Of a stretch of 64,000 nt of DNA, positions 1-14,167 are shown piece after piece; positions within the stretch are counted from its first letter, which is position 1, and every line of letters starts with the position of its first letter. The position numbers and the translations under genes are program-made. Origin of the DNA: Candidatus Stahliibacteriota bacterium (lineage in GTDB: Bacteria; Hydrothermota; Tepidihabitantia; B3-TA06); the NCBI GenBank assembly GCA_004375895.1, contig SOJW01000035.1, positions 42,264 to 106,263 on the forward strand. The letters run 5' to 3'. Below the pieces are notes generated by a model. It was not told the DNA's origin. It did no database searches and worked only from the letters and a program-made list of their open reading frames with translations.

Positions 1-24
1 AAAACCGAGCAAGGTGAAGAAGTA

Positions 25-924
25 GTGAACTTCCCTAAACGCCCGACGGCTGAACACTCCCAAACTCCCAGAGCTGGCATTGAATCCAAGATGACGCCTG
101 CTAAGTGTCCCAAAATCAATTACGTTCGTCCCCCTGTGCCGCACATACCTACCCAGACGGCAAGGGTGGTAGTGTCACATGAGTTCGATATCCTGGTGGG
201 ATACGGCTATGCGAACAGGGAAGATTTCTTTGAGGTAAGATTGGGGATATGGCACGAGATAATGGAATTGGCGATACTCGCTTTGACTATGGAAGCGCTT
301 TACTGGCCGCTGGATCTTTATCACTCCTGTTACATTAATGACATACCAAATAGCTTCGCTAATGCCGCTGTTGCTTATGTTCAGCAGTGGTTGTGTGGTA
401 GTGAAGGTAGGAAGAAATTCCTTTACTGGAAGGGCGATCCGCCCTTTGAGGCGTTTGAATCCCAGTCACGCTCGCACGAAAAGGAGGCTGAGCGGCTGGC
501 TTCCAACGCCTCCTCTTTGGATAAGGGAGGGAGCCATCTGCAGGCTAACTCACAATGGAAGGAGTGTGCGGAAGCCTGGGAGAGGGCGGCAAAAGCTTGG
601 GACGCCTCCACACATCCAGATGCCAGGTCTAAAGCCAAAGATGCCCGGGAAGAGATGAGAGTGGCTGCTAAGAAGGCAGGACACTGGGAGGTTAATCCTT
701 CTTCAGGTAAAGAGATAACCATTAAGTACCGGGATTGGTTCGGGGATTTTGAGGCAGAGATCCTGGATACAACCGGGAGGAGGATTGATAAGTTTACCCG
801 TTCAATTGAACAAGGCGAGATTTGCTGGGGTGCTGAGGGCCGCATAAAAGCCGGCACTTATTTCGTTAAGGTGAAGCTTTTAGGTGACGAGTTCGAGACG
901 GAGAAGATAGCTATTCTGGGGTAG
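25..924 (+). CDS. Hypothetical protein, cassette family A (Trp-rich W-x-x-A-x-x-AW repeats); paralog of 1968..3053
   Basis: Long ORF with a GTG start at 25 after an in-frame TAG. Shares the motifs LWHEIME..L.ALxxEALY and FLYW(K/E)GDPPF(E/D)xFE plus repeated WxExAxAW segments with ORF 1968..3053. No signal peptide. No homolog recognised. Confidence 0.5.
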   Translation: MNFPKRPTAEHSQTPRAGIESKMTPAKCPKINYVRPPVPHIPTQTARVVVSHEFDILVGYGYANREDFFEVRLGIWHEIMELAILALTMEALYWPLDLYHSCYINDIPNSFANAAVAYVQQWLCGSEGRKKFLYWKGDPPFEAFESQSRSHEKEAERLASNASSLDKGGSHLQANSQWKECAEAWERAAKAWDASTHPDARSKAKDAREEMRVAAKKAGHWEVNPSSGKEITIKYRDWFGDFEAEILDTTGRRIDKFTRSIEQGEICWGAEGRIKAGTYFVKVKLLGDEFETEKIAILG

Positions 925-983
925 TGATTATTTTTCTTTTGTAGCGCGAGCCTCAGCGTGCCCACTTCGGGTATCGGGTTCGC

Positions 984-1011
984 TTGACAACCCTCCCGCG
1001 CTCCCTACAAT
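984..1011 (+). promoter_or_regulatory. Consensus sigma70 promoter (TTGACA-16-TACAAT) upstream of the family B1 gene
   Basis: TTGACA at 984-989 and TACAAT at 1006-1011, followed by RBS gaagga and ATG at 1029. The same -10/RBS/ATG block is repeated at 6331-6362. Confidence 0.6.
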
Positions 1012-1028
1012 AATTTACAGAAGGAGTG

Positions 1029-1781
1029 ATGAAGAACGTGTTTAAACAGATAACGATCCTGTGCCTTATCGTCCTTGCGGGGTCAGTCATCTTCTGCAAG
1101 AAGAAGGCGGAGGAAGAGCCTGAGCCGCACTGGCTGCGGGTATACCACGACGGTGAGTTCAAGTGGAAGATCGATGTTTCGGAGTGGGAGGTTAGAGAGG
1201 ATGTAGTTCCTCTAGGGGTTTTTTTTTATCCGTGGCAAGGGGAGGATTCCATTAACTGGACTGAGTACGATCCCCACGGACACCCTCTTTGGCCGGGACC
1301 TTACCTGGCAGTAAACGATAAGGTAGTAGGTGTAAATCTGGGATTTATTCCTCTTTCTTACCCAGAGATTGTGGACTCAGAGAAGATAATTACTGCTACG
1401 TTCGATGAGTATTTTGTGGGGTCCGAGTTTGACCCTGCTGTACTTAAGAAGTTACCCAACCTGATCGGCCTATACTGGTGTGTTGGTTCAAGAGAAGACT
1501 TGGAAAGGATTGGAACTATACCCTCACACCTGAGAATCTATCTTTTTTGTTACCATGATATAACTGGAGCCGATCTCAAGGGGTTAAGTAAGTTCTCCAA
1601 TATCCGGTCGTTGCGGATAGAGGACGGTTCGTTGAGTTATCGTGATCTCAGATACCTTTGCAGGTTTAAAGGGCTACGCTGGTTTGAATTTATCACCCGG
1701 GTACATCAGGAGGAACGGATCAAATGTCTGAGTAAGCTCAAAAAGCTGAGATATTGGTACGTGGGACCGATAATTATTTAG
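1029..1781 (+). CDS. Secreted/membrane protein, cassette family B (N-terminal signal/TM segment, FFYPW(Q/H)GEDSI motif, C-terminal leucine-rich repeats)
   Basis: ORF with an N-terminal hydrophobic segment (ITILCLIVLAGSVIFC). Shares motifs with 3967..5016 and 5171..6247. C-terminal LRR-like periodicity (LRSLRIEDGSLSYRDLRYLCRFKGLRW). ATG at 1029 preferred over GTG at 1026. Confidence 0.55.
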   Translation: MKNVFKQITILCLIVLAGSVIFCKKKAEEEPEPHWLRVYHDGEFKWKIDVSEWEVREDVVPLGVFFYPWQGEDSINWTEYDPHGHPLWPGPYLAVNDKVVGVNLGFIPLSYPEIVDSEKIITATFDEYFVGSEFDPAVLKKLPNLIGLYWCVGSREDLERIGTIPSHLRIYLFCYHDITGADLKGLSKFSNIRSLRIEDGSLSYRDLRYLCRFKGLRWFEFITRVHQEERIKCLSKLKKLRYWYVGPIII

Positions 1782-1967
1782 AAACCCCTTCTTTGAGCAA
1801 TAGAAACTTAAAGCACTTCTTCAGGCTTCTATTGACTTCTTCATCTACGTCTTTACGCTAAAAGAGATTATCTTCGGTTAAACTTTCCCAAAGGAGGTTG
1901 AGATGAAGGTCGAGATTAAACACAGGAGCAAGCGAGGGTTTCCCATCACTGAGAAGGAGGTGTTCCT

Positions 1968-3053
1968 ATGTCTAACATAGACCCGGGAAAGACCGTAGCA
2001 TTGGAGGAGCAGCTGCGACTGATCACTGACCCTAACAACGAGAGATTAGGCTCCAAGAAGTTTAAATTCTTCTTCGAGTTCGGCTGGAGACCTAATGAGA
2101 TCGAACTTGCAAAAGAAGCGGAGAAGGAGGAAAAGAGATACCAGTACGTGAATTCCAAAGGATATTTTACCTATGAGGATACAGGTCGTGTAGACAAGTT
2201 TACAGGCTATACGCAGCACATCTATCAGGCCAAGGTGAATCTCACCGTGCCCCAGGCTGCGGCCCTGTTGGGTCATTACGGGATTGATCTCGTGGTGCGC
2301 TCACAGTACACATACAAGGGAAAGGATTTCCCCAGGGAAGCGGAAAAGGGAGAGGAGACACGCGGGGGTGCCATAACTACCTTGCCCGCTTTGCCTGAAC
2401 CCGAGAGCCTGGGGCACATGCAGGGGACAGCGACGATTATGTTCTCCCATCACTTTGACATCCGACCTGAATACCTGCCCGGCAAGGTTGCCCTGAAAGA
2501 GGAGTTCGTGGCGGTGCGAAAGAGGCTCTGGCACGAGATAATGGAGACCACCTTGATCGCCCTGGTCGCCGAAGCGCTTTATATGCCTCGCCAGCTTCAC
2601 AGTGATTATAAACGTAAGAAGTTGGACAATTTTGCCAACGAGAGCGTAAAGGAGGTGCAACGGGGATTGAGGGACAGCCTGTTTCTTTACTGGGAGGGCG
2701 ATCCGCCGTTTGATGGGTTTGAGGTTGGGCCGATGTCCAAGGAAAATGAGCTGGAGCAAAGGGAGAATCACCTTCACGGCCTCAAGTCGTTCTATATCCC
2801 TGAAAAGATAGCGCGAATGTGGGAGGACATAGCCAAGGAATGGGAAGTAGTAGCCCAAGCCTGGCTCTATACCAAATCTCCCCATCGGATTAAGAAGGCT
2901 ACTACGGCCTGGGAGAAAGCTGCTAATGCCTGGTACGCGGCTGAAGGGGAGTGGCGCAGGTCAACCCATGCTGATAAAGATAAGTTGGCTGATGCTTCTC
3001 AAAAGCGAGGCCAGGAAGCGGAACGCAAAGCCAAAGATATGGTGGGAAGGTAG
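1968..3053 (+). CDS. Hypothetical protein, cassette family A (full-length paralog of 25..924)
   Basis: RBS ggagg then ATG at 1968. Shares RLWHEIMETTLIALVAEALY and LFLYWEGDPPFDGFE with ORF 25..924. Trp-rich C-terminal repeats (WEDIAKEWEVVAQAW, AWEKAANAW). Confidence 0.55.
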   Translation: MSNIDPGKTVALEEQLRLITDPNNERLGSKKFKFFFEFGWRPNEIELAKEAEKEEKRYQYVNSKGYFTYEDTGRVDKFTGYTQHIYQAKVNLTVPQAAALLGHYGIDLVVRSQYTYKGKDFPREAEKGEETRGGAITTLPALPEPESLGHMQGTATIMFSHHFDIRPEYLPGKVALKEEFVAVRKRLWHEIMETTLIALVAEALYMPRQLHSDYKRKKLDNFANESVKEVQRGLRDSLFLYWEGDPPFDGFEVGPMSKENELEQRENHLHGLKSFYIPEKIARMWEDIAKEWEVVAQAWLYTKSPHRIKKATTAWEKAANAWYAAEGEWRRSTHADKDKLADASQKRGQEAERKAKDMVGR

Positions 3054-3130
3054 TCTACTTCTCGGCAAGCAACCTGTCCACCAGATCGTCCGGCGATACA
3101 CCCCCTCGGCGGCTTGACAACCCTACTCCC
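3054..3130 (+). repeat. ~75-bp 3'-flank repeat carrying a -35 box (copy 1); copy 2 at 6251..6324
   Basis: Near-identical block ...ctcggcggcttgacaaccctactcc... found directly after the stops of family A2 (3053) and family B3 (6247). Confidence 0.7.
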
Positions 3131-3234
3131 ATTGGCCGGGCAAATGTGCAATCCAGATCTGGACTTGCTCCGCCGGTCAACCGGGAAGACTGGTCAAGAG
3201 CATAAGTGAGCCTCACTCGGCAGGGGTTATCACA

Positions 3235-3909
3235 TTGGGAGTGGAGAGTAAGCTCGCTCCCGGTAGCTATATGCCCAAACCCTGGCTCGAGGCTTACGCA
3301 AGGGAAGAGGACAGAGAGAAAGCCAATGGAGTGGTGCCCCAACCCATGAGGTTCACCATAGGAAAGCCCAAATGGAGCGTTAAGATAGACGAGGTCGCTT
3401 TCAACCCCCAGGTGGTCATAGATTTCAAAAGTTTCTTCAAGGGATTTGAGGCCAAAATCTACTACAAACAAAGGCTTGTGGATACCCTGACCTCCACTAC
3501 CCCATCAGGGCAGTTTACCTGGGGCGATGGCAAAAAGCACGCAGAATATGAAATAAAGGTGAACGTCAACGGGGTATGGCAGAGTAAGAGCATCGGACGG
3601 TTCTCCGTAAAACCTCCCTACTGGAAGGTGTGGTACGAGAATGCCGGAAGCCTAGGTAAAACCATAGATATAGAATACGGGGATTGGCGACCTAAAGAAG
3701 TTGGATGCCCTGTAACCATAACGGATCCCAGAGGCAGGAAGTACCTTTTTAATGATCATAAGGAATATGGTTGGTATAAGTTCGATCTTAGGGATAAGCC
3801 TTTGGGGAGATATAGGCTAGAAGTCGATACCGATTATCCGGAGAGCGCCATTAAAAAAAGCGTAGAGGTGGAGGTAGGCAGCGAGCTTGACAGCAAGAGA
3901 ATACTTTAG
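3235..3909 (+). CDS. Hypothetical protein, predicted beta-rich, unique to the island
   Basis: Long ORF with good coding-like composition. Start uncertain: TTG at 3235, GTG at 3241, or first ATG at 3271. No recognisable domain. Confidence 0.4.
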   Translation: MGVESKLAPGSYMPKPWLEAYAREEDREKANGVVPQPMRFTIGKPKWSVKIDEVAFNPQVVIDFKSFFKGFEAKIYYKQRLVDTLTSTTPSGQFTWGDGKKHAEYEIKVNVNGVWQSKSIGRFSVKPPYWKVWYENAGSLGKTIDIEYGDWRPKEVGCPVTITDPRGRKYLFNDHKEYGWYKFDLRDKPLGRYRLEVDTDYPESAIKKSVEVEVGSELDSKRIL

Positions 3910-3966
3910 GGAGGCAAGTTGACATAGAAGGGGAATCTCCTATACTTTCTTATGTAAGGAGGATTT

Positions 3967-5016
3967 ATGGATTCTAACATCGATTTCAAAACAAAAATAA
4001 TTAACGCTATGTTTTTACTCCTCATCCTGAGTCTTACCTTCTGCAGAAGAGGTCTGGGTGAAGGTTATGAATCATTTCGTCTCCCTCACTTTTATTCTCG
4101 AGATCTCCCTGCAAGAGAGATACTACCACTCCTATGGAAAAATGCCTATCTGCCGGACGCGGTGCCTGAAGATGTGGTTGAAAAGGGCAAAAAACTGATC
4201 GTCACCCACCGGGGAGAACCGTATCTGGTTTATGATGTCTCCGGGTGGGAACCGGGCGAGGATGTGGTGGGATTTTATCTGCCGAAGGATTACACCTCTC
4301 CTATAGATGTGGATTCCTATTTATGCGAACAACTTGGGGTAGATGAGTTGCCCTTCCCCATCGAGGAGGAAGAGGAGAGAGCTCCCTTGTTGTTTTTCTA
4401 TCCCTGGCATGGTGAAGATAGTATTGACTATAAGGTAGACCCGGAACCTTTAACCGTAAACGGCAAGATCGTAGGGGGTGTTCTTTCTTCCATAGAATTC
4501 ATGTATTTTCTTGAGGACGAGGGAATCGACATCGAACAGATCGATTTCCGTACCCAAGGAATACTCTGTCTCACGACACAGGCGTTCGAACCTGAGTATA
4601 CCATTAGAAGACTGAGGCGATTCCCTGATCTGGAGGTAGTATTCATGTATCTGGATCGCATCAGTTATGCGTATAGCGACTGCTTTGTCTGGAATGAGAC
4701 CTTATATTACAAGGAGAAATGCTGGCTTTCCAAGTGGCTCTATTTCAGGAACCTTAAGCGAGTGACCGAGATTGCCAACCTTTATCTTTACCTCGCCGAC
4801 ATTGCCGATGACGAACTTAGGCTCTTAAGTGACTTCACCAAGCTTAAGGGGTTGTGGATAAAAAGCGACAGCCTCACCGACGTCGGGCTTGCGCACCTAA
4901 AAAAACTCTCCGGATTGAGGACGCTTTATCTTTATGGAACAGAGGTAAGCGAGGAGGGGATGGTCGAGTTAGGGGAAGTCTTGCCCAGATGTGATATCAT
5001 GCGGAGGGGTCGTTAG
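3967..5016 (+). CDS. Secreted/membrane protein, cassette family B (paralog B2)
   Basis: RBS aaggagg then ATG. N-terminal hydrophobic segment LLLILSLTFC, motif LLFFYPWHGEDSIDYKV. C-terminal LRR (LKGLWIKSDSLTDVGLAHLKKLSGLRTLYLYGTEVSEEG) about 90% identical to B3. Confidence 0.55.
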   Translation: MDSNIDFKTKIINAMFLLLILSLTFCRRGLGEGYESFRLPHFYSRDLPAREILPLLWKNAYLPDAVPEDVVEKGKKLIVTHRGEPYLVYDVSGWEPGEDVVGFYLPKDYTSPIDVDSYLCEQLGVDELPFPIEEEEERAPLLFFYPWHGEDSIDYKVDPEPLTVNGKIVGGVLSSIEFMYFLEDEGIDIEQIDFRTQGILCLTTQAFEPEYTIRRLRRFPDLEVVFMYLDRISYAYSDCFVWNETLYYKEKCWLSKWLYFRNLKRVTEIANLYLYLADIADDELRLLSDFTKLKGLWIKSDSLTDVGLAHLKKLSGLRTLYLYGTEVSEEGMVELGEVLPRCDIMRRGR

Positions 5017-5026
5017 GACCCTTTAC

Positions 5027-5160
5027 AATAAAAAAGGAAAACAGACTTTCTACCCACGCAGGTGAGAAGTGTGGTAAGGCACATCAGGCCGATACACCAC
5101 TCCCCTAACAGTGCAGATCACCAATAACACCACTTGACGTCTGGGAAAAATATACTTATA
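5027..5160 (+). repeat. Duplicate of the tRNA-Cys upstream/promoter segment (homologous to 6408..6540)
   Basis: Shared block agactttctacccacgcagg...ggtaaggcacatcaggcc...ccactcccc...ttgacg, ending in a -35/-10 that drives the leaderless B3 start at 5171. Confidence 0.6.
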
Positions 5161-5170
5161 CTTCTTGGTT

Positions 5171-6247
5171 ATGAGGCGAAAGAAGAAACTTAAAATTATT
5201 TTCCTGACAATAGGCAGCACCTTGCTTCTTTTAATTTTATCCGTCCTGTTTTCCTACTATTATCTAGTTAGTGATTGGGGTGATAAGAATCGCATTCTGC
5301 CTCCGTTTTATTTTTGGGGTCCATACGCATGGGAGGGGCCATTTGGGCTATTTGTATATGATTATCTTCCGCACCTTTTGAAAGATGCTTATCTCCCGGA
5401 GGAGGTGCCTGAAGATGTGGAAGAAAAATTAGTGGTTCTCCGCGATGGAGAACCGGAAGTAGTTTATGATGTATCCAGGTGGGAACCGGGCGAGCACGTG
5501 ATGCGGTTTTATGCAAGGAGAAGGGAATATGACACCCTGGTGATGACTTCTTTTGATACGGGGGACACGATCCTATATGAGATACGCAAGCTATTCCCCC
5601 AGGAGCAGACTGAATCTGCCACATTGTTTCTTTACCCCTGGCACGGGGAAGATACCATCTCCTATCAGGTTTCGTCTTGGAGTTTGCGGATAAACGGCAA
5701 GCAGGCAGGGGTCCTTTTTCGCCCCATAGAATCAATGTCGTTTCTTCCTGAGGAAAAGATCGAACTTGAATATATCGACGCCCCTACCCAAGGGATAGTC
5801 ACTATTACAATAGAAGATTTTGAACCACCTTTTACAATAAGAAGACTGGAGCGCTTCCCTGACCTGGAGGTAATATTCATGACCCTGTACTTTGAAGATT
5901 ATGCTTACGAGTATTACCGCCGCTTGGCCCCTGAATTGATACGCTACAAAGAGAGGTGCTGGCTTTCCAAGTGGCTCTACTTCAGGGGCCTAAAGCAAGT
6001 GACCGAGATAGCCGATCTTTATCTTTACATCGAGGGAGTGCGCGATGCTGAACTCTGGTTCTTACGTAACTTCACCAAGCTTAAGGGGTTGTGGATCGAA
6101 AGCGACAGCCTCACCGACGCCGGGCTTGCGCACCTAAAAAAACTCTCCGGATTGAGTACGCTTTATCTTTATGGAACAGAGGTAAGCGAGGAGGGGGTAG
6201 CCGAGTTACGGGAAGCCTTGCCGGAGTGTAAGATTACGTTCAGATAA
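5171..6247 (+). CDS. Membrane-anchored protein, cassette family B (paralog B3)
   Basis: ATG at 5171 lies 9 nt after a TTATAC -10 box, so the transcript is leaderless. Has an N-terminal TM helix, LFLYPWHGEDTISYQV, and a C-terminal LRR shared with B2. Confidence 0.55.
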   Translation: MRRKKKLKIIFLTIGSTLLLLILSVLFSYYYLVSDWGDKNRILPPFYFWGPYAWEGPFGLFVYDYLPHLLKDAYLPEEVPEDVEEKLVVLRDGEPEVVYDVSRWEPGEHVMRFYARRREYDTLVMTSFDTGDTILYEIRKLFPQEQTESATLFLYPWHGEDTISYQVSSWSLRINGKQAGVLFRPIESMSFLPEEKIELEYIDAPTQGIVTITIEDFEPPFTIRRLERFPDLEVIFMTLYFEDYAYEYYRRLAPELIRYKERCWLSKWLYFRGLKQVTEIADLYLYIEGVRDAELWFLRNFTKLKGLWIESDSLTDAGLAHLKKLSGLSTLYLYGTEVSEEGVAELREALPECKITFR

Positions 6248-6250
6248 AGG

Positions 6251-6336
6251 ATTTACTTCTCTTCAAGCAGCCTGTCTACAGCTCGTCGGCTGACACGCCC
6301 TCGGCGGCTTGACAACCCTACTCCTATACCTACAAT
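6251..6336 (+). repeat. 3'-flank repeat copy 2 fused to a TTGACA-16-TACAAT promoter
   Basis: Homologous to 3054..3130. TTGACA at 6309-6314 and TACAAT at 6331-6336, followed by RBS+ATG at 6357 of a degenerate family B N-terminus. Confidence 0.65.
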
Positions 6337-6356
6337 AGTTTACAGAAGGAACGGCG

Positions 6357-6410
6357 ATGAAGAGGATCATTAAAGCGGCAGCGATCGTCATGCTTCCTTT
6401 TTGCTCCTTA
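6357..6410 (+). pseudogene. Remnant 5' end of a family B cassette gene (signal-peptide-like MKRIIKAAAIVMLPFCSL) that loses coding character and runs over tRNA-Cys
   Basis: The promoter/RBS/ATG-AAG context is identical to B1 (1006-1034). ORF 6357..6740 overlaps the tRNA and the downstream composition is non-coding. Confidence 0.45.
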
Positions 6411-6510
6411 TCTAAGGAAAAGGAAAGAGACTTTCTACCCACGCAGGCGGGGAAGTCCGGTAAAGCACGTCAGGCCAGTAAGCCACTCCCCCAAGACGGA
6501 GTGATTCGAC

Positions 6511-6539
6511 TTGACAATCCAGTTCTCCTAGATATATTT
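6511..6539 (+). promoter_or_regulatory. tRNA-Cys promoter (TTGACA-17-TATATT)
   Basis: The -35 is at 6511-6516 and the -10 at 6534-6539. The mature tRNA 5' end at 6547 lies about 8 nt downstream. Confidence 0.6.
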
Positions 6540-6546
6540 AGCTTAA

Positions 6547-6618
6547 GGCGGCATAGCCAAGTGGTAAGGCGGCGGTCTGCAAAACCGCTATTCCTCGGTT
6601 CAAGTCCGGGTGCCGCCT
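6547..6618 (+). tRNA. tRNA-Cys (anticodon GCA)
   Basis: Hand-folded cloverleaf. Acceptor GGCGGCA/TGCCGCC, anticodon stem GCGGT/ACCGC, loop CTGCAAA giving anticodon GCA. T-loop TTCAAGT, 72 nt, CCA not encoded. Confidence 0.85.
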
Positions 6619-6623
6619 TAAAG

Positions 6624-6655
6624 CCCCACCCTCGCAGCTTGCTGCGAGGGTGGGG
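6624..6655 (+). terminator. Stem-loop directly after tRNA-Cys (CCCCACCCTCGCAGC-TTGC-TGCGAGGGTGGGG)
   Basis: Perfect 14-bp stem seen in the sequence. It lacks a U-tract, so it could be a processing or termination structure. Confidence 0.5.
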
Positions 6656-7032
6656 ACCCCGATCGGGATGGTCAACACATCGTTACCAGGTAAAGGGGTT
6701 GAGATCGTCAAGTAGGAGGACAGGGAAGTTGATGAAGTAGAACAGACACTCTTGTCTGTTCAAAAACCAAAAATCTCCCTACTTCCCACCAATACCGAAA
6801 TCTTTTCGTATTCCCAGAACCAATTTTCATTACTATACTTTACTAGAGCTGTGAAATCTGTCAAGTCTTCCAACTATATACCCTCTTCTGTTGACGATAC
6901 TACACTGAACTAATAAATCACCTTGATTAAACGATAATGGCGCTCTTACCTCTCCCCTCTGGTAACCATCTCCCCGCGCACGCACTTAATACGCTTGACG
7001 CAGGCCGCATTATCCACTATAATCAGTGCTTG

Positions 7033-7299
7033 ATGTCTGTTGTTGCTGTCTATCGTCCTATGGACGAACTAACTGCCCGTGCGTTACTTGCAGCACTGGA
7101 GGTCAAGGGTATACGCGCGGAGCTGCGGCAGTTTCACAACCCCTGGGAGATTCCCTGGCTTGAAGGGAACCCATGGGGCGAGATACTGGTACTGGAAGAG
7201 TACGCCGGACGGGCCCGAAAGGTAATTGAGGATTTTCTCGCGAACGCAGACGGGGATACAGCCTCTCCGAATGAAGACGAAACGGCATCCGACGAGTAA
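7033..7299 (+). CDS. DUF2007-like small protein (putative signal-transducing protein family)
   Basis: MSVVAVYRPMDELTARALLAALEVKGIRAEL matches the DUF2007 pattern. A TTGACG-17-TATAAT promoter (6995-7023) places the transcription start ~3 nt before the ATG, so the transcript is leaderless. Confidence 0.5.
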   Translation: MSVVAVYRPMDELTARALLAALEVKGIRAELRQFHNPWEIPWLEGNPWGEILVLEEYAGRARKVIEDFLANADGDTASPNEDETASDE

Positions 7300-7375
7300 T
7301 GGGAATCCCGAACAGGGCGTAAAGGCGAAGCCCAAAAAATCAAAGTGTCACTGAAGGAGACAATCAGGAGGCTTT

Positions 7376-10135
<2,760 letters not shown>

Positions 10136-10238
10136 AAGCAAGATAGGCCTCAACCAGCCCGAGGACGCCCCCCCCAAAGTAGTGAAATCCGCATTAGGCA
10201 ACCCTAAGGCACTCCTGCAACCTCCGCAATCCATGATC

Positions 10239-10266
10239 TTGACTGCCAGATCATTCTAAGTATGAT
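10239..10266 (+). promoter_or_regulatory. TTGACT-16-TATGAT promoter; leaderless start of the gene at 10272
   Basis: The ATG begins 6 nt after the -10 box. Confidence 0.5.
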
Positions 10267-10271
10267 GAGGT

Positions 10272-11054
10272 ATGAGGCTTCGCAAAGGAGTAATACTGGC
10301 CGGTGGCATGGGCGCAAGGCTGGCTCCCCTGACTCAGGTGACGAATAAGCATCTCCTTCCTGTCTACGATAGACCGATGGTAACCTATCCGATCGAGAAG
10401 ATGGTCCAGGCCGGTATCGAGGAGATACTTTTAGTCACCGGCGGTGAGTTCGCAGGCGATTTCCTGAGACTACTGGGCAACGGGAAATCGTTAGGGATAA
10501 AAAGACTCCACTACACCTATCAGGAGGGGCACGGAGGGATAGCGGCAGCGCTTTCGCTGGCCGAGGACTTCGCGGACAGCGAGCCGATTCTCGTAATCCT
10601 GGGCGACAACATCTTCAACGCTTCGATTTTACCTTTCGTGAAGAAGTACAACTCCCAAGGTACCGGTGCCATGATCCTCTTAAAAGAGGTCGCCGACGCG
10701 CACCGCTTCGGCGCGGCTACTGTGGAAGGTGATAGGATAGTAAAAATCACGGAGAAGCCAGCCAAGCCCGAGTCGAATCTGGCCGTGACCGGCATCTACT
10801 TCTACGACTCACGTGTGTTTGAGATAATCAAGGGCCTTTCGCCGTCGGCCCGCAACGAGCTTGAAATCACCGACGTGAACAACATCTACATCTCGTGTGA
10901 CCAGATGCGCTGGGAAAAGCTTACCGGCTGGTGGAGTGACGCAGGGACGTTTGAATCTCTTTACCGGGCAACGGAGTTGGTGCGTAAATCCCGGCTTTCT
11001 GCGAAAGGAGAGAAGGGGAGGAGGACGGAAGGAGAACGGGAGGAGGGCGCGTGA
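10272..11054 (+). CDS. Sugar-phosphate nucleotidyltransferase (short RmlA/glucose-1-phosphate thymidylyltransferase-like)
   Basis: GVILAGGMGARLAPLT...KHLLPV at the N-terminus and the LGDNIF motif. Has a low-complexity Glu/Arg-rich C-terminal tail. Confidence 0.8.
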   Translation: MRLRKGVILAGGMGARLAPLTQVTNKHLLPVYDRPMVTYPIEKMVQAGIEEILLVTGGEFAGDFLRLLGNGKSLGIKRLHYTYQEGHGGIAAALSLAEDFADSEPILVILGDNIFNASILPFVKKYNSQGTGAMILLKEVADAHRFGAATVEGDRIVKITEKPAKPESNLAVTGIYFYDSRVFEIIKGLSPSARNELEITDVNNIYISCDQMRWEKLTGWWSDAGTFESLYRATELVRKSRLSAKGEKGRRTEGEREEGA

Positions 11055-13531
11055 CGCTGGTTCTTATAGACGGGCACTCCATCGCCTACCGGTCATACTT
11101 TGCTTACATCAAGAAACCACTCCGAGATTCGTCTGGCCGTAACACCTCCGCAATCTTCGGTTTCCTTCAGGCCATGGATAAGATTGCCGAGCATTATCCG
11201 ACAGATCACATGGTCATAACCTTCGACGCAGGCAGGCGAGTGTTCCGCCACGATAAGTTCGAAGATTATAAGAAAGACAGACCCCAGATGCCGGACGATC
11301 TGGTATGGCAGGTGCCCATGATCACGAGGGTAGCAAAACTGCAGGGTCTGCCGGTGCTCCTCAAGGAAGGCTACGAGGCTGACGACATCATGGCCACCAT
11401 TACAGATAAGCTTGCCAAGAACTTCTCCAAGGTGGTAATCGTTTCAGGCGACAAGGATCTCTATCAGCTGGTGTGCGGCAAGGTGGTGATCTATGACCCT
11501 TACAAGGACGAGGAGTTTGACCCTGAAAAGGTGAAGGGAAAGATGGGCGTTGGGCCTGAACGCATCACCGATCTTTTGGCCCTTATGGGCGATTCAGTAG
11601 ACGGGGTGCCAGGTGTTCCGGGCATCGGCCCCAAGCGGGCAAAGGACTTGCTGGAAAAGTATGGTGATCTGGCAACCGCACTCCAAAAGGAAGAAAAGCT
11701 TGCCGAGCATCGGGAGGTTGCAGAGCTCTCCTACGAGCTTGTTCAGCTGCATCGCGACGTGCCGATTGAAGTTGACGAGGACTCACTCAAGCGCACCGAA
11801 CCGAACGACGCTGGACTTCAGGATATGTATAACGAGCTTGGGTTTACGTCAAGGTTGTCCAGGATGAAGGTAAGGGATAAGACAGCAAAGCTGGAGATCA
11901 CCAAGGGTGAATTTAAACCCAAAAAGGGCGACCCCATATCCTTTATATTCGAGGAGAACTCCGGACAGCGCGATATGTTCGATGAAAGTGAGGAGGAGTG
12001 TTACGGGTGGACGAGAATCCTGGCCTCAGACGGGTTCACGGTGGCGGAGATCACCGAAGATCAAGCGCGTAAACTATTTTCTGAGGAGTGCTACCCCAAG
12101 ATACTGTGGGCGGCAAAGCCCCTGCTGCGCGCCGGGTTCCAGATCAAGGGCAAGCTTTACGACATCCACCTCATGGCGTTTATCGAAAACTCAGATTTGA
12201 GCTTAAGGACCCTGGAACGTGTCTTGGTGCACACTGCAGGCAGACCCATCTCCTCCCCTGCTGACACTGCGAACCTGATGCACGAAGCCGCAGAGCATTA
12301 TCAAAAGGAACTTGAGAACGTGGGGGCATGGGATGTGTACGAGAAGATGGAGGTCCCGCTCATCCCGGTACTTACTAAAATGGAGCAGCGCGGGGTGAGG
12401 CTGGATACCTCATACTTCGGAAAATTAACCGATGGCTGGGAAGGCGAGTTGAAGAAGTTAGAGGAAGAAATCCATGCGATAGCAGAGCAAAAGTTCACCA
12501 TAGGCTCGCCCAAGCAGCTTGCAGAGGTGCTTTTTACCGAGCTTGGCCTTCGTCCCCGCAAACGGACCAAGACCGGCTACTCCACCGCCGCAGGTGTTCT
12601 TGAAGAGATGGCTGACGAGCATCCCATCATACCCAAGGTACTCCAGTGGCGCGCCTTCTCCAAGCTCTTATCGACCTATCTCAGACCTCTGGTTACCCTG
12701 GTGGATAAGGATTCAAGGATACATACGACCTTCGACCAGACCGGTGCGGCCACCGGCAGGTTATCGACCAAGGACCCCAACCTTCAGAACATCCCTATCA
12801 GGGGTGAGCGCGGCCCACAGGTACGTGCAGGGTTTATCGCAAGCCCGGGCTACAAACTCTTATCAGCCGACTACTCACAGATCGAGCTCCGGGTGCTCGC
12901 CCACGTTGCAGAAGATGAAGCGTTGGCCAAGGTATTCCACGACGGTCGGGACGTGCATACCGAGACCTCGATGCGTATCTTCGGGTTGAAGGAAGCTGAC
13001 GTCACCCGCGACCACCGGCGCATGGCCAAGGCGATCAATTACGGGATAATCTACGGCATGGGTCCCTATGGTTTCGCGCGCCGCATGGGTGTGACCACCG
13101 AAGAGGCCTCGCTCTTCATCGAACGCTACCTCGCTTCATTCCCCCAGGTGTCGGCTTGGCGGGAGCAGATTCTTGTGGACGCAAGGGAAAACGGATACGT
13201 ATCCACGATAGCAGGAAGAGTCCGCCGACTCCCGGTTATCTCAGACCGTATGGACATAGCCGAGCGCGCAGCTCTCAACGCACCTATACAGGGGTCTGCT
13301 GCGGATATAATAAAAAAGGCGATGATTACGGTGGAGAAGAATCTCGAAAAGGCGGGGATAGAGCCGGGCATGCTTCTTCAGATCCACGACGAGTTGTTGT
13401 TCGAGGTGAAAGAAAGCGAGGTGGAAAAGGCGAAGAAGATCGTCAAGAAGGACATGGAGTCGGCCTACAAGCTCTCGGTACCGCTTGAGGTGGAGATAGG
13501 GGTAGGTGATAACTGGGCGCAGGCGCATTAG
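11051..13531 (+). CDS. polA: DNA polymerase I (5'-3' exonuclease plus polymerase domains, Taq-like length)
   Basis: 826 aa. N-terminal 5'-nuclease LIDGHSIAYRSYFA. Polymerase motifs RRMAKAINYGIIYGM and QIHDELLFE. GTG start overlaps the upstream stop. Confidence 0.95.
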   Translation: MTLVLIDGHSIAYRSYFAYIKKPLRDSSGRNTSAIFGFLQAMDKIAEHYPTDHMVITFDAGRRVFRHDKFEDYKKDRPQMPDDLVWQVPMITRVAKLQGLPVLLKEGYEADDIMATITDKLAKNFSKVVIVSGDKDLYQLVCGKVVIYDPYKDEEFDPEKVKGKMGVGPERITDLLALMGDSVDGVPGVPGIGPKRAKDLLEKYGDLATALQKEEKLAEHREVAELSYELVQLHRDVPIEVDEDSLKRTEPNDAGLQDMYNELGFTSRLSRMKVRDKTAKLEITKGEFKPKKGDPISFIFEENSGQRDMFDESEEECYGWTRILASDGFTVAEITEDQARKLFSEECYPKILWAAKPLLRAGFQIKGKLYDIHLMAFIENSDLSLRTLERVLVHTAGRPISSPADTANLMHEAAEHYQKELENVGAWDVYEKMEVPLIPVLTKMEQRGVRLDTSYFGKLTDGWEGELKKLEEEIHAIAEQKFTIGSPKQLAEVLFTELGLRPRKRTKTGYSTAAGVLEEMADEHPIIPKVLQWRAFSKLLSTYLRPLVTLVDKDSRIHTTFDQTGAATGRLSTKDPNLQNIPIRGERGPQVRAGFIASPGYKLLSADYSQIELRVLAHVAEDEALAKVFHDGRDVHTETSMRIFGLKEADVTRDHRRMAKAINYGIIYGMGPYGFARRMGVTTEEASLFIERYLASFPQVSAWREQILVDARENGYVSTIAGRVRRLPVISDRMDIAERAALNAPIQGSAADIIKKAMITVEKNLEKAGIEPGMLLQIHDELLFEVKESEVEKAKKIVKKDMESAYKLSVPLEVEIGVGDNWAQAH

Positions 13532-13584
13532 GGGGAGAATTGAACCACAGATTACACCGATTTCACGGATTAAGGTTTGATTAT

Positions 13585-13633
13585 GGAGTGCAACGAGCGC
13601 CTCGTTGCCGCAACAACACGGTTGTTGCACTCC
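13585..13633 (+). repeat. Structured repeat family 'GGAGTG-2 hairpins-CACTCC', copy 1
   Basis: GGAGTG-[CAACGAG cgc CTCGTTG]-ccg-[CAACAAC acg GTTGTTG]-CACTCC. Other copies at 31400, 33157 and 41192. Confidence 0.7.
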
Positions 13634-13659
13634 AAAGTCACGAGGGTAGAAAAAAATGA

Positions 13660-13750
13660 AACACGGAGATCACAGAGAACACGGAGAAAACCATATGAAT
13701 AATTATAATAATCCCCTCCTCTGTGTTCTCCGTGTGCTCTGTGGTTTTAA
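13660..13750 (+). repeat. Long imperfect inverted repeat (~25-bp arms, ~35-nt AT-rich loop) downstream of polA
   Basis: cacggagatcacagagaacacggag ... ctcctctgtgttctccgtgtgctctgtgg. Confidence 0.5.
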
Positions 13751-13756
13751 TACCCT

Positions 13757-14167
13757 ATGACCTGGACACCGCCTAAGACACCCTATCTCACGGTTGACTG
13801 CATCATCAGATACAAGCAAGGGATTGTGCTGATCCAGCGTAGGCATCCGCCCGAAGGCTGGGCCCTGCCCGGAGGATTCTGCGAGATCGGCGAGACGGTC
13901 GAGGACGCGGTGCGCCGGGAGGTGCGCGAGGAGACCGGGCTGGAGCTTGAGAACTTAAAGCAGTTCCGCGTCTACTCCGACCCAGCCCGCGACCCCCGCT
14001 TCCACACCGCCTCAGTGGTCTTTGCCGCCGACGGCATTGGTGTGTTACGGGGCGGAAGCGACGCAAAGGTTGCGAGAGTGTTTAAGTTGGATGAGCTGCC
14101 GGAAGAGATTTGTTTTGACCATCGAGAGATTATACAAGACTACATTGTCAATCTTTCATCTACGTGA
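13757..14167 (+). CDS. NUDIX hydrolase
   Basis: Nudix box GGFCEIGETVEDAVRREVREETGL. Confidence 0.8.
   Translation: MTWTPPKTPYLTVDCIIRYKQGIVLIQRRHPPEGWALPGGFCEIGETVEDAVRREVREETGLELENLKQFRVYSDPARDPRFHTASVVFAADGIGVLRGGSDAKVARVFKLDELPEEICFDHREIIQDYIVNLSST

Follow-up and report, generated by a model that had tools for sequence, protein, structure and literature searches.

A tRNA-Cys-side segment recurs before a family-B gene in a polymorphic lipoprotein gene cluster of a Candidatus Stahliibacteriota bacterium

Introduction

How does DNA that lies in front of a tRNA gene come to lie in front of a protein-coding gene as well? This question is raised by a stretch of 64 kb from a Candidatus Stahliibacteriota bacterium (contig SOJW01000035.1, positions 42,264 to 106,263), hereafter called the window. 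Positions 1-6500 of the window are a lineage-specific cluster of genes for secreted proteins or lipoproteins of families A, B and C, and this cluster adjoins a tRNA-Cys gene on the 5' side of the tRNA. A segment situated upstream of tRNA-Cys, here called the block, is present a second time between the family-B genes B2 and B3; the copy before B3 is named block A and the copy before tRNA-Cys block B (Table 1). Between B3 and the tRNA gene lies the remnant of a further family-B gene start, headed by a promoter element. The results presented here make it probable that local recombination copied tRNA-side DNA to a position before B3, that 138 nucleotides (nt) were later deleted from the copied region, and that the outcome was a hybrid promoter for B3.

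Results

Homology between the two blocks ends at the -35 hexamer

An internal repeat search of the window paired positions 5033-5062 with 6418-6447 (90% identity) and positions 5066-5108 with 6452-6494 (79% identity), with a 1-nt indel offset between the two pairs. When up to three mismatches were allowed, the 19-mer GACTTTCTACCCACGCAGG had exactly two occurrences in the 64 kb, where 0.01 would be expected, and a second 18-mer taken from the block gave the same outcome. Global alignment of 5029-5139 with 6414-6516 resulted in 84% identity (80 matches, 15 mismatches and 13 gap positions). The repeat between the B2-B3 gap and the region upstream of tRNA-Cys is real and goes far beyond chance.

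The original prediction, which had been made from the letters of the window, described a block of about 130 bp (6408-6540) that contains the whole tRNA promoter and recurs at 5027-5160. The repeat stands, but its extent has to be revised to about 110 bases, as homology ends at the -35 and not at the -10. The last stretch common to both copies is ACTTGAC at the -35 hexamer (5132-5138 and 6509-6515). Past TTGAC, local alignment of the regions upstream of B3 and tRNA-Cys was no better than that of shuffled sequences (p = 0.36); the spacer, the -10 and the 8 nt beyond it are non-homologous. The spacer of the tRNA promoter-like site, given before as 17 nt, is one of 16 nt (Table 1).

Relatives were collected through the genomic contexts of B3 homologues and through an exact-pattern scan of metagenome contigs. 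This yielded seven other assemblies, whose locus arrangements were compared by blastn (assemblies L081-L088, of which L081 and L083 are the same 170-kb contig in two samples). In a protein search, the B3 protein matched one from candidate division TA06 bacterium B3_TA06 at 85% identity, and the contig of the latter (L082) shows synteny with the window that extends over tRNA-Cys, the DUF2007 gene and PPDK; the organism of the window is a relative of this bacterium. The DNA identity of PPDK to the window is 96.5-96.8% in the three assemblies carrying this gene, and the between-strain synonymous divergence (dS) is about 0.09. By that one gene, the window and its relatives would constitute one species-level population. 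An exact look-up of the B3 protein sequence returned no record, and a scan of a genome collection with PPDK gave, among the matches listed, identities of at most 65%, without tRNA-Cys synteny and without the block.

A predicted hybrid promoter in front of B3

Promoter-like sites matching 10-11 of 12 consensus positions are found at 984 (B1), 3919 (B2), 5134 (B3), 6309 (the promoter element), 6511 (tRNA-Cys) and 6995 (the next gene). That of tRNA-Cys is identical in the four tRNA-bearing genomes, save one spacer base in L082. Comparison of the B3 upstream region past TTGAC with that of B2 gave p ~0.026, both in the window and in the independent L086/L087 pair, and the pattern common to B3 and B2 is AAT.T.CTATAC-TTCTT..GT.AGG. 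Because homology with the tRNA side ends at the -35 and the core of the B3 site resembles that of B2, only the upstream part and the -35 would have been copied. The predicted B3 promoter looks like a hybrid, to which the tRNA-Cys side contributes the sequence up to and including the -35, and in which the spacer, the -10 and the 5' end are of the B type.

In the window and in L081, the B3 mRNA is probably leaderless, because the ATG is located 8 nt past the -10 and is not preceded by a Shine-Dalgarno (SD) sequence, while B1, B2, A2 and the remnant have AGGAG-type sites.

Two side observations concern the transcription of tRNA-Cys itself. The leader of its primary transcript would be only about 0-2 nt long, since G6547 is 8 nt past the predicted -10 (6533-6547). 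In addition, the promoter element at 6309-6336 could yield a second, longer tRNA-Cys precursor, which is possible because there is no terminator-like site between this element and the tRNA promoter.

A decayed family-B gene start beside tRNA-Cys

The region between B3 and tRNA-Cys had been predicted to hold a decayed family-B gene start, that is, a full B-type module of promoter, ribosome-binding site (RBS) and ATG whose open reading frame (ORF) degenerates after a signal-peptide-like stretch of 17 amino acids. All parts of the module are present at the positions given in Table 1, and a decayed ORF with a signal peptide was recovered as well, with 16 codons to the Cys. Over 121 nt, window positions 6264-6384, comprising the promoter, the RBS, the ATG and nine codons, match the head of an L085 gene of family B at 98% identity; this gene begins MKRIIKAAATILAFAAAPGC / MKRIIKAAATILAFAAAPGCKGKER and has the motif YPWQGEDSI. 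In L086, the position of the remnant after B3 is taken by a B-family gene that encodes a lipoprotein of at least 381 aa and stays open as far as the contig reaches, and the remnant is ~85% identical to it over the first 13 codons. In agreement with the prediction, the ORF start at 6357 is a genuine family-B gene start whose body was lost; the signal peptide is all that survives of this gene in the window.

As a separate observation, the B-family gene of L085 to which the remnant was matched (7507-8637, minus strand) is split into ORFs of 182 aa and 147 aa, the second of which has the putative leucine-rich repeat (LRR) part. This split gene is either a frameshifted pseudogene or an assembly error.

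Arrangements of the locus in relatives

The order in the window is A1 - B1 - A2 - C - B2 - block A - B3 - element - remnant - block B - tRNA-Cys - DUF2007 gene - PPDK, and the seven other assemblies provided six further arrangements. In L082 (TA06 B3_TA06) a truncated C gene is fused into the middle of block A and B2 is missing, after which B3, the element, the remnant, block B, tRNA-Cys and PPDK follow. L086 has the same fusion of C to half a block in front of B3, and its promoter element heads the B-family lipoprotein gene mentioned above. L081/L083 contain B2, a long block, B3, a short block and a 25-nt piece of the C 3' end, followed by an array of clustered regularly interspaced short palindromic repeats (CRISPR). 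In L088, B2 is followed by a short block, the C piece and CRISPR, and B3 is lacking. L087 has a B2 gene with a B3-type 3' end and then directly the promoter element. Finally, the series element - remnant - block B - tRNA-Cys is preceded by an A-like gene in L084 and by A2 in L085. The locus is highly polymorphic.

The C-B2-B3 region of the window is bracketed by two direct repeats of ~75 nt (94% identical over 35 nt; Table 1). In L085, a single copy of this repeat joins A2 straight to the remnant, which equals the window minus 3133-6253; this arrangement is consistent with the product of a deletion between the 75-nt repeats. The original prediction that gene turnover is ongoing at this site is borne out by the six further arrangements, found at ~96.5% PPDK identity. 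A static arrangement around tRNA-Cys in related genomes, named there as the observation that would speak against turnover, was not found when these neighbourhoods were compared, and cassette numbers differ.

The CRISPR array, which takes the place of tRNA-Cys after the B cassette, was found in two independent assemblies (L081 11205-18961, also L083; L088 1680-1771). In L081 it consists of 111 perfect repeats of TTTCAATTCCACTATGGTGCGATGGGAG, a sequence that the window lacks, with a period of ~66 nt. The B cassette abuts the trailer end of the array, because cas2 is located at the far end. A role of the block copy on this side, block A'', as CRISPR leader or promoter in L081 and L088 was considered and ruled out, as cas2 is at the opposite end and the block faces the trailer end. 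Elsewhere in L081 (6856-8742), an A-family gene and gene C form one ORF of 628 aa, which reads through a stretch that is intergenic in the window (3054-3234, including GGCGGCTTGACAACCCT).

Direction, age and mechanism of copying

The tRNA-side block directly adjoins the dead signal peptide in each of the four genomes that bear tRNA-Cys, among them L084 and L085, where B3 is missing; compared with this block, the copies on the B3 side are truncated at the 5' end. The B2-B3 copy of L081 extends further 5', to the equivalent of window position 6375; it starts with GCTTCCTTTTTGCTCC (lipobox codons), and in this way retains a piece of the dead signal peptide, namely its lipobox. The block that precedes B3 appears to derive from the tRNA-side arrangement. 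A TACAAT at 5024-5030 was considered as a -10 left over from the promoter element, with ATG and signal peptide lost between AAGGAA repeats. Alignments ruled this out, and identified the region as a diverged lipobox region (GCTCCTTATCTAAGG) that is 10 nt shorter.

The duplication is not confined to the block. The preceding B 3' end (278 nt at 87% identity) is co-duplicated, and it is contiguous with the block once a deletion of 138 nt is counted. The B2-type 3' end equals the B3-type 3' end minus 138 nt. On the B2 side, the B stop codon is gone, and so are the promoter element and the beginning of the remnant (its ATG and first 8 codons). In L087, the form without this deletion still follows B2. 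The last codons of B2 (RRGR*) are read out of frame from DNA that once encoded the signal peptide of the remnant.

Sequence identity sorts the block copies into a tRNA-side and a B3-side group, with 93-99% identity within and 75-88% between groups, and the copying therefore predates the strain splits. The copy is about twice as old as these splits (K ~0.18 versus dS ~0.09). B2 and B3 differ by a dS of 0.75, and the block copy seems younger than the split between these genes. Identity along the B2/B3 unit is 40-55% at the 5' end and 93-97% at 4847-4960 / 6084-6200. This uneven identity reads as a mosaic of gene conversion tracts.

Together, these results point to a probable course of events. 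Of the B gene nearest the tRNA, only the promoter, RBS, ATG and signal peptide (6309-6404) would have been left, with a short non-coding tail running into the tRNA promoter. Local recombination, by gene conversion or unequal crossing-over, would then have copied a tRNA-side stretch over the B2-B3 intergenic region, bounded on the left within the homologous B-gene 3' ends and on the right within the common TTGACA -35 hexamer. The copied stretch would have run from the B 3' end through the promoter element and the dead signal peptide into the tail, up to and including the tRNA -35 hexamer. A later deletion of 138 nt in the upstream copy would have removed the B stop, the promoter element and the first 8 remnant codons, and would have fused the B2 frame into the remnant to give the ending RRGR*. 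As the outcome, B3 would possess a hybrid promoter in which an upstream part and a -35 from the tRNA-Cys side are joined to a B-type spacer, -10 and 5' end. Recombination between the 75-nt promoter-element repeats, the B 3' ends and the blocks would have continued, and strains would differ in cassette number because these short repeats keep recombining. The comparisons show the homologies with their boundaries, the relative ages and the structural polymorphism; the direction and mechanism of copying, the -35 hexamer as its junction, promoter activity and leaderless translation are features that we infer. Tandem cassette duplication or recombination anchored at tRNA-Cys had been proposed for this site; the local recombination in this proposal is retained, but "anchored" would mean adjacency only, there being no signature of tRNA-targeted integration.

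Several points weigh against this reconstruction. Its direction and mechanism are based on parsimony over eight assemblies, mostly metagenome contigs, and the exact arrangement of the window is absent from the other assemblies, yet each of its junctions recurs in some assembly. The promoters are consensus matches only, of which 7.2 would be expected by chance in 7.5 kb, and the homology between the core promoters of B3 and B2 is weakly significant (p ~0.03). In addition, the leaderless start codon of B3 is GTG in L082 and GTA in L086, with a downstream ATG preceded by GAGG, so that a leaderless B3 start would be limited to some strains. Of the earlier idea that the copied block drives such a start, the copying of the upstream part and the -35 holds, but the start itself is not conserved in L082 and L086. 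Finally, the uneven divergence could reflect diversifying selection on the N-terminal domain: the between-strain ratio of nonsynonymous to synonymous divergence (dN/dS) is 0.44-0.62 for B3 and B2, and 0.18 for PPDK.

The same arrangement might alternatively have been generated in one step, by a single tandem duplication reaching from an ancestral B -35 to the tRNA-Cys -35 that made B3 and block A together, all divergence having accumulated since. The units 3919-5133 and 5134-6510 fit such an event exactly, with the order B gene, remnant, block, -35. It would also explain that homology stops at the -35 and that the B3 core promoter resembles that of B2, and the difference in length is accounted for by the 138-nt deletion and smaller indels. 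However, a single event predicts similar neutral divergence throughout, unless later conversion is invoked anyway, and the divergence observed is uneven: the dS of B2/B3 is 0.75, the presumably neutral block differs by 16% (K ~0.18), and the 3' 150 nt differ by 3-7%. Because divergence is so uneven along the unit, later recombination or conversion is preferred over a one-step tandem duplication, which we consider unlikely.

Two independent junctions coincide with (C)TTGACA, namely the end of homology between blocks A and B, and the junction between the block and the C-gene 3' fragment in L081 and L088. The C gene of the window has CTTGACA at 3886-3892. It is conceivable, although doubtful, that the -35 hexamers of this cluster are recurrent microhomology junctions for illegitimate recombination, at which promoter halves are shuffled between genes. 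If this were true and held generally, the modular exchange of promoters within gene-family clusters would be driven by the promoter consensus elements themselves.

The block as a mobile, regulatory, RNA or integrative element

A different explanation for the repeat is that the block constitutes a selected, portable cis-regulatory element, such as a "mobile promoter" or a regulator-binding region, which spreads to positions before various genes and co-regulates tRNA-Cys and B3. The block and its -35 do precede three different sequences (tRNA-Cys, B3 and the C-gene fragment beside the CRISPR array), the -35 is retained in every copy, and the repeat reaches the values used to define putative mobile promoters by sequence (PMC3575422). 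On the other hand, the 64 kb contain two copies, and in the 88 loci examined copies were found only inside the locus. The upstream flank, the B 3' end, was duplicated too, so that the block did not move alone, and the copy on the CRISPR side lacks a -10 and faces the trailer end of the array. Nor are orthologous copies more conserved than PPDK (94.9-97.6% versus 96.5-96.8% identity), by which special constraint on the block was ruled out, and a repeat search detected no inverted repeats flanking it. In view of these observations, a portable element is very improbable.

The block does not appear to qualify as a miniature inverted-repeat transposable element or as a promoter borne on an insertion sequence. 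A structured RNA was likewise ruled out: tRNA-Cys was the sole Rfam match at E <= 1, with no structured RNA in the block, and folding of the block compared with shuffled sequences showed no excess stability (z-scores +0.47, -0.88, +0.29 and +0.52). With respect to integration, a search of the window that allowed up to three mismatches gave a single occurrence of the 22-nt 3' end of tRNA-Cys, the window starting inside the cluster, and no integrase was detected by Pfam/NCBIfam in seven proteins scanned from 25-7299. Located 5' of the tRNA, with an unrepeated tRNA 3' end and no detected integrase, the cluster is not an island of the classical tRNA-integrated kind.

The remnant reading frame

In L082 and L085, a TAA closes the ORF that starts at 6357 after 45 codons. 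The window and L084 have CAA in its place, and with the stop lost the ORF continues there through the tRNA promoter and the tRNA. Substitutions in the ORF are mostly non-synonymous, and that of L084 has an Arg within the hydrophobic core of the signal peptide. No homologue of the 63-aa remnant peptide was found among 5.8 billion proteins. As this search was empty and B-family homology fades after codon 9-13, the block was rejected as coding remnant of a recognisable protein. The remnant ORF is not maintained. That it is instead a live small lipoprotein gene of ~45 aa, with the block conserved as coding sequence, is hardly credible: its promoter-like site, SD sequence and ATG are intact, the signal peptide has its Cys, and two genomes keep the 45-codon frame, but two of four orthologues have lost the stop and run through the tRNA, the changes listed above fall on the protein, the B3-side copies lack the start codon and carry a 1-nt frame shift, and the peptide has no database homologue.

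Features of the cluster and family-B proteins

Coordinates of the features are listed in Table 1. The guanine-plus-cytosine (GC) content is 46-51% in the gene-family cluster (1-6500), and 54-59% in the downstream core genes (7000-14000).

Table 1. Features of the cluster and of the adjoining tRNA-Cys gene, in window coordinates
Feature	Position	Strand	Description
A1	25-924		Family A gene
B1	1029-1781		Family B gene
A2	1968-3053		Family A gene
Left copy of ~75-nt direct repeat	3055-3132	+	Intergenic, 3' of A2; GGCGGCTTGACAACCCT at 3108-3124
C	3235-3909		Gene C
B2 promoter-like site	3919-3946	+	TTGACA-16-TATACT, then SD AAGGAGG and ATG 3967
B2	3967-5016	+	349-aa family-B protein; lipobox-like LTFC; putative C-terminal LRR region
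B2 3' tract	4708-4985	+	87% identical to B3 3' end (5945-6222); 93-97% at 4847-4960
Block copy A	5017-5139	+	From B2 stop to B3 promoter; homologous to 6375/6414-6516; ends in TTGACG (5134-5139)
B3 predicted hybrid promoter	5134-5162	+	TTGACG-17-TATACT
B3	5171-6247	+	358-aa family-B protein; N-terminal membrane helix; putative C-terminal LRR region
Right copy of ~75-nt direct repeat	6253-6327	+	5' half of promoter element
Remnant of family-B gene start	6309-6404	+	TTGACA (6309-6314), 16-nt spacer, TACAAT (6331-6336); SD GAAGGA (6345-6350); ATG 6357; 16 codons MKRIIKAAAIVMLPFC to Cys codon 6402-6404
Block copy B, tRNA-side source form	6375-6516	+	From within dead signal peptide to TTGACA (6511-6516)
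tRNA-Cys promoter-like site	6511-6538	+	TTGACA-16-TATATT; mature tRNA 5' end 8 nt past -10
tRNA-Cys (GCA)	6547-6619	+	CCA not encoded

The first base of tRNA-Cys is G6547, and its acceptor stem GGCGGCA pairs with TGCCGCC. Rfam placed the gene at 6547-6618 and ARAGORN at 6546-6619. The 3' flank of the tRNA (6620-6990) varies: the window is without a 48-nt hairpin segment that is present in L082, L084 and L085, and the window and L082 have ~270 nt (6672-6940) that are missing from L084 and L085. The hairpins in this flank all end in a GGGGACCCCGA-like sequence. Between-strain DNA identity of the DUF2007-like gene (6995-7299) is 87.5-91%, as compared with 96.5-96.8% for PPDK just downstream.

Family B is very small; the search with the B3 protein gave nine close homologues, and beyond these only the putative LRR part was matched. 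Pfam/NCBIfam scans and the protein search revealed no known relatives of the N-terminal region. The leaders of the family are of a signal-peptide or lipoprotein-like kind; their motifs are IFC, TFC and PFC in the window, and relatives have LGC or PGC. The N-terminus of B3 (5171-5260) is homologous to the B2 signal peptide (3967-4050), LLLLILSVLFS corresponding to FLLLILSLTFC. The lipobox Cys is replaced by Ser in B3, and for this reason the protein is probably membrane-anchored or differently processed rather than lipidated. A 63-nt in-frame segment of B2 (4288-4349, ~DYTSPIDVDSYLCEQLGVDEL) is present in the window, in L088 and in proteins P0005-P0007, and is missing from L081 and L087 (proteins P0008 and P0004).

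On B2, the Pfam domain LRR_4 scored below threshold, and more distant B homologues carry LRR Pfam domains. The AlphaFold (AF2) model of B3 has a mean predicted local distance difference test score (pLDDT) of 57.9, and confidence is high only for the membrane helix and for the C-terminal third of the protein. It was judged too weak to serve as guide to the N-terminal domain. A Foldseek search with this model gave LRR domains as top matches (E = 6e-5), including the Leptospira LRR proteins 4u09 and 4u06.

Discussion

Reuse of promoters in prokaryotes has been described in the form of putative mobile promoters (Matus-Garcia, Nijveen & van Passel 2012), for which a commentary (PMC3575422) gives the limits of 80% identity or more across 50 nt or more in front of unrelated genes. 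The block resembles these, being 84% identical over ~95 aligned nt including the -35 in front of tRNA-Cys and the non-paralogous gene B3, and being unlinked to a known mobile element. It differs from them in that it would form the end of a longer tract, duplicated or converted locally, to which the preceding B 3' end also belongs, and in that only the -35 half of the promoter is common to both copies. Independent mobility of the block is not supported, because the end of the preceding gene was co-duplicated.

Another parallel is the capture of a promoter by local duplication, as in the Cit+ rnk-citT event of the E. coli long-term experiment, as cited in the same commentary (PMC3575422). In both cases, local duplication or recombination would place a gene behind promoter DNA of a neighbour. 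Here, unlike in that event, the donor would be the promoter region of a tRNA gene and the junction would lie at the -35, giving a hybrid in place of a whole captured promoter.

Hybrid promoters also arise when an outward-facing -35 at the end of an insertion sequence is combined with a resident -10. The predicted B3 promoter would likewise consist of a -35 from incoming DNA and a -10 that was already present, but no insertion sequence, transposase or terminal inverted repeat was found at the B2-B3 locus. Similarly, the cluster shares with integrase-inserted tRNA-linked islands that it is of low GC content, varies between strains and adjoins a tRNA gene. It differs in its position on the 5' side of the tRNA and in that its variation is explained by recombination between internal repeats.

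At the protein level, family B recalls the LRR lipoprotein families of Leptospira, with tandem paralogues that have signal or lipoprotein leaders and, in family B, a putative LRR region. It also recalls surface families subject to gene conversion (Leptospira being one example), as family B has conversion mosaics, raised dN/dS and copy numbers that differ between strains. In contrast to these, family B has an N-terminal domain without known relatives, and dedicated variation machinery is not evident.

We conclude that the repeated block probably reflects the reuse of promoter DNA through local recombination within a variable gene family. The differences in gene number between closely related strains are genuine, but they are genome plasticity of an ordinary kind. 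It is a fresh example, from a poorly studied phylum, of a known kind of event, and not a novel type of element or mechanism. Transcription starts are predicted near 5170, 6343 and 6546, and these predictions can be checked in metatranscriptomes. The locus would provide a clean, natural, population-level case of a protein gene that gained part of the promoter of a neighbouring stable-RNA gene through local recombination. In this uncultured phylum, short repeats such as the 75-nt promoter element, the 3' ends of genes and the copied block would drive the gain and loss of genes for surface proteins.

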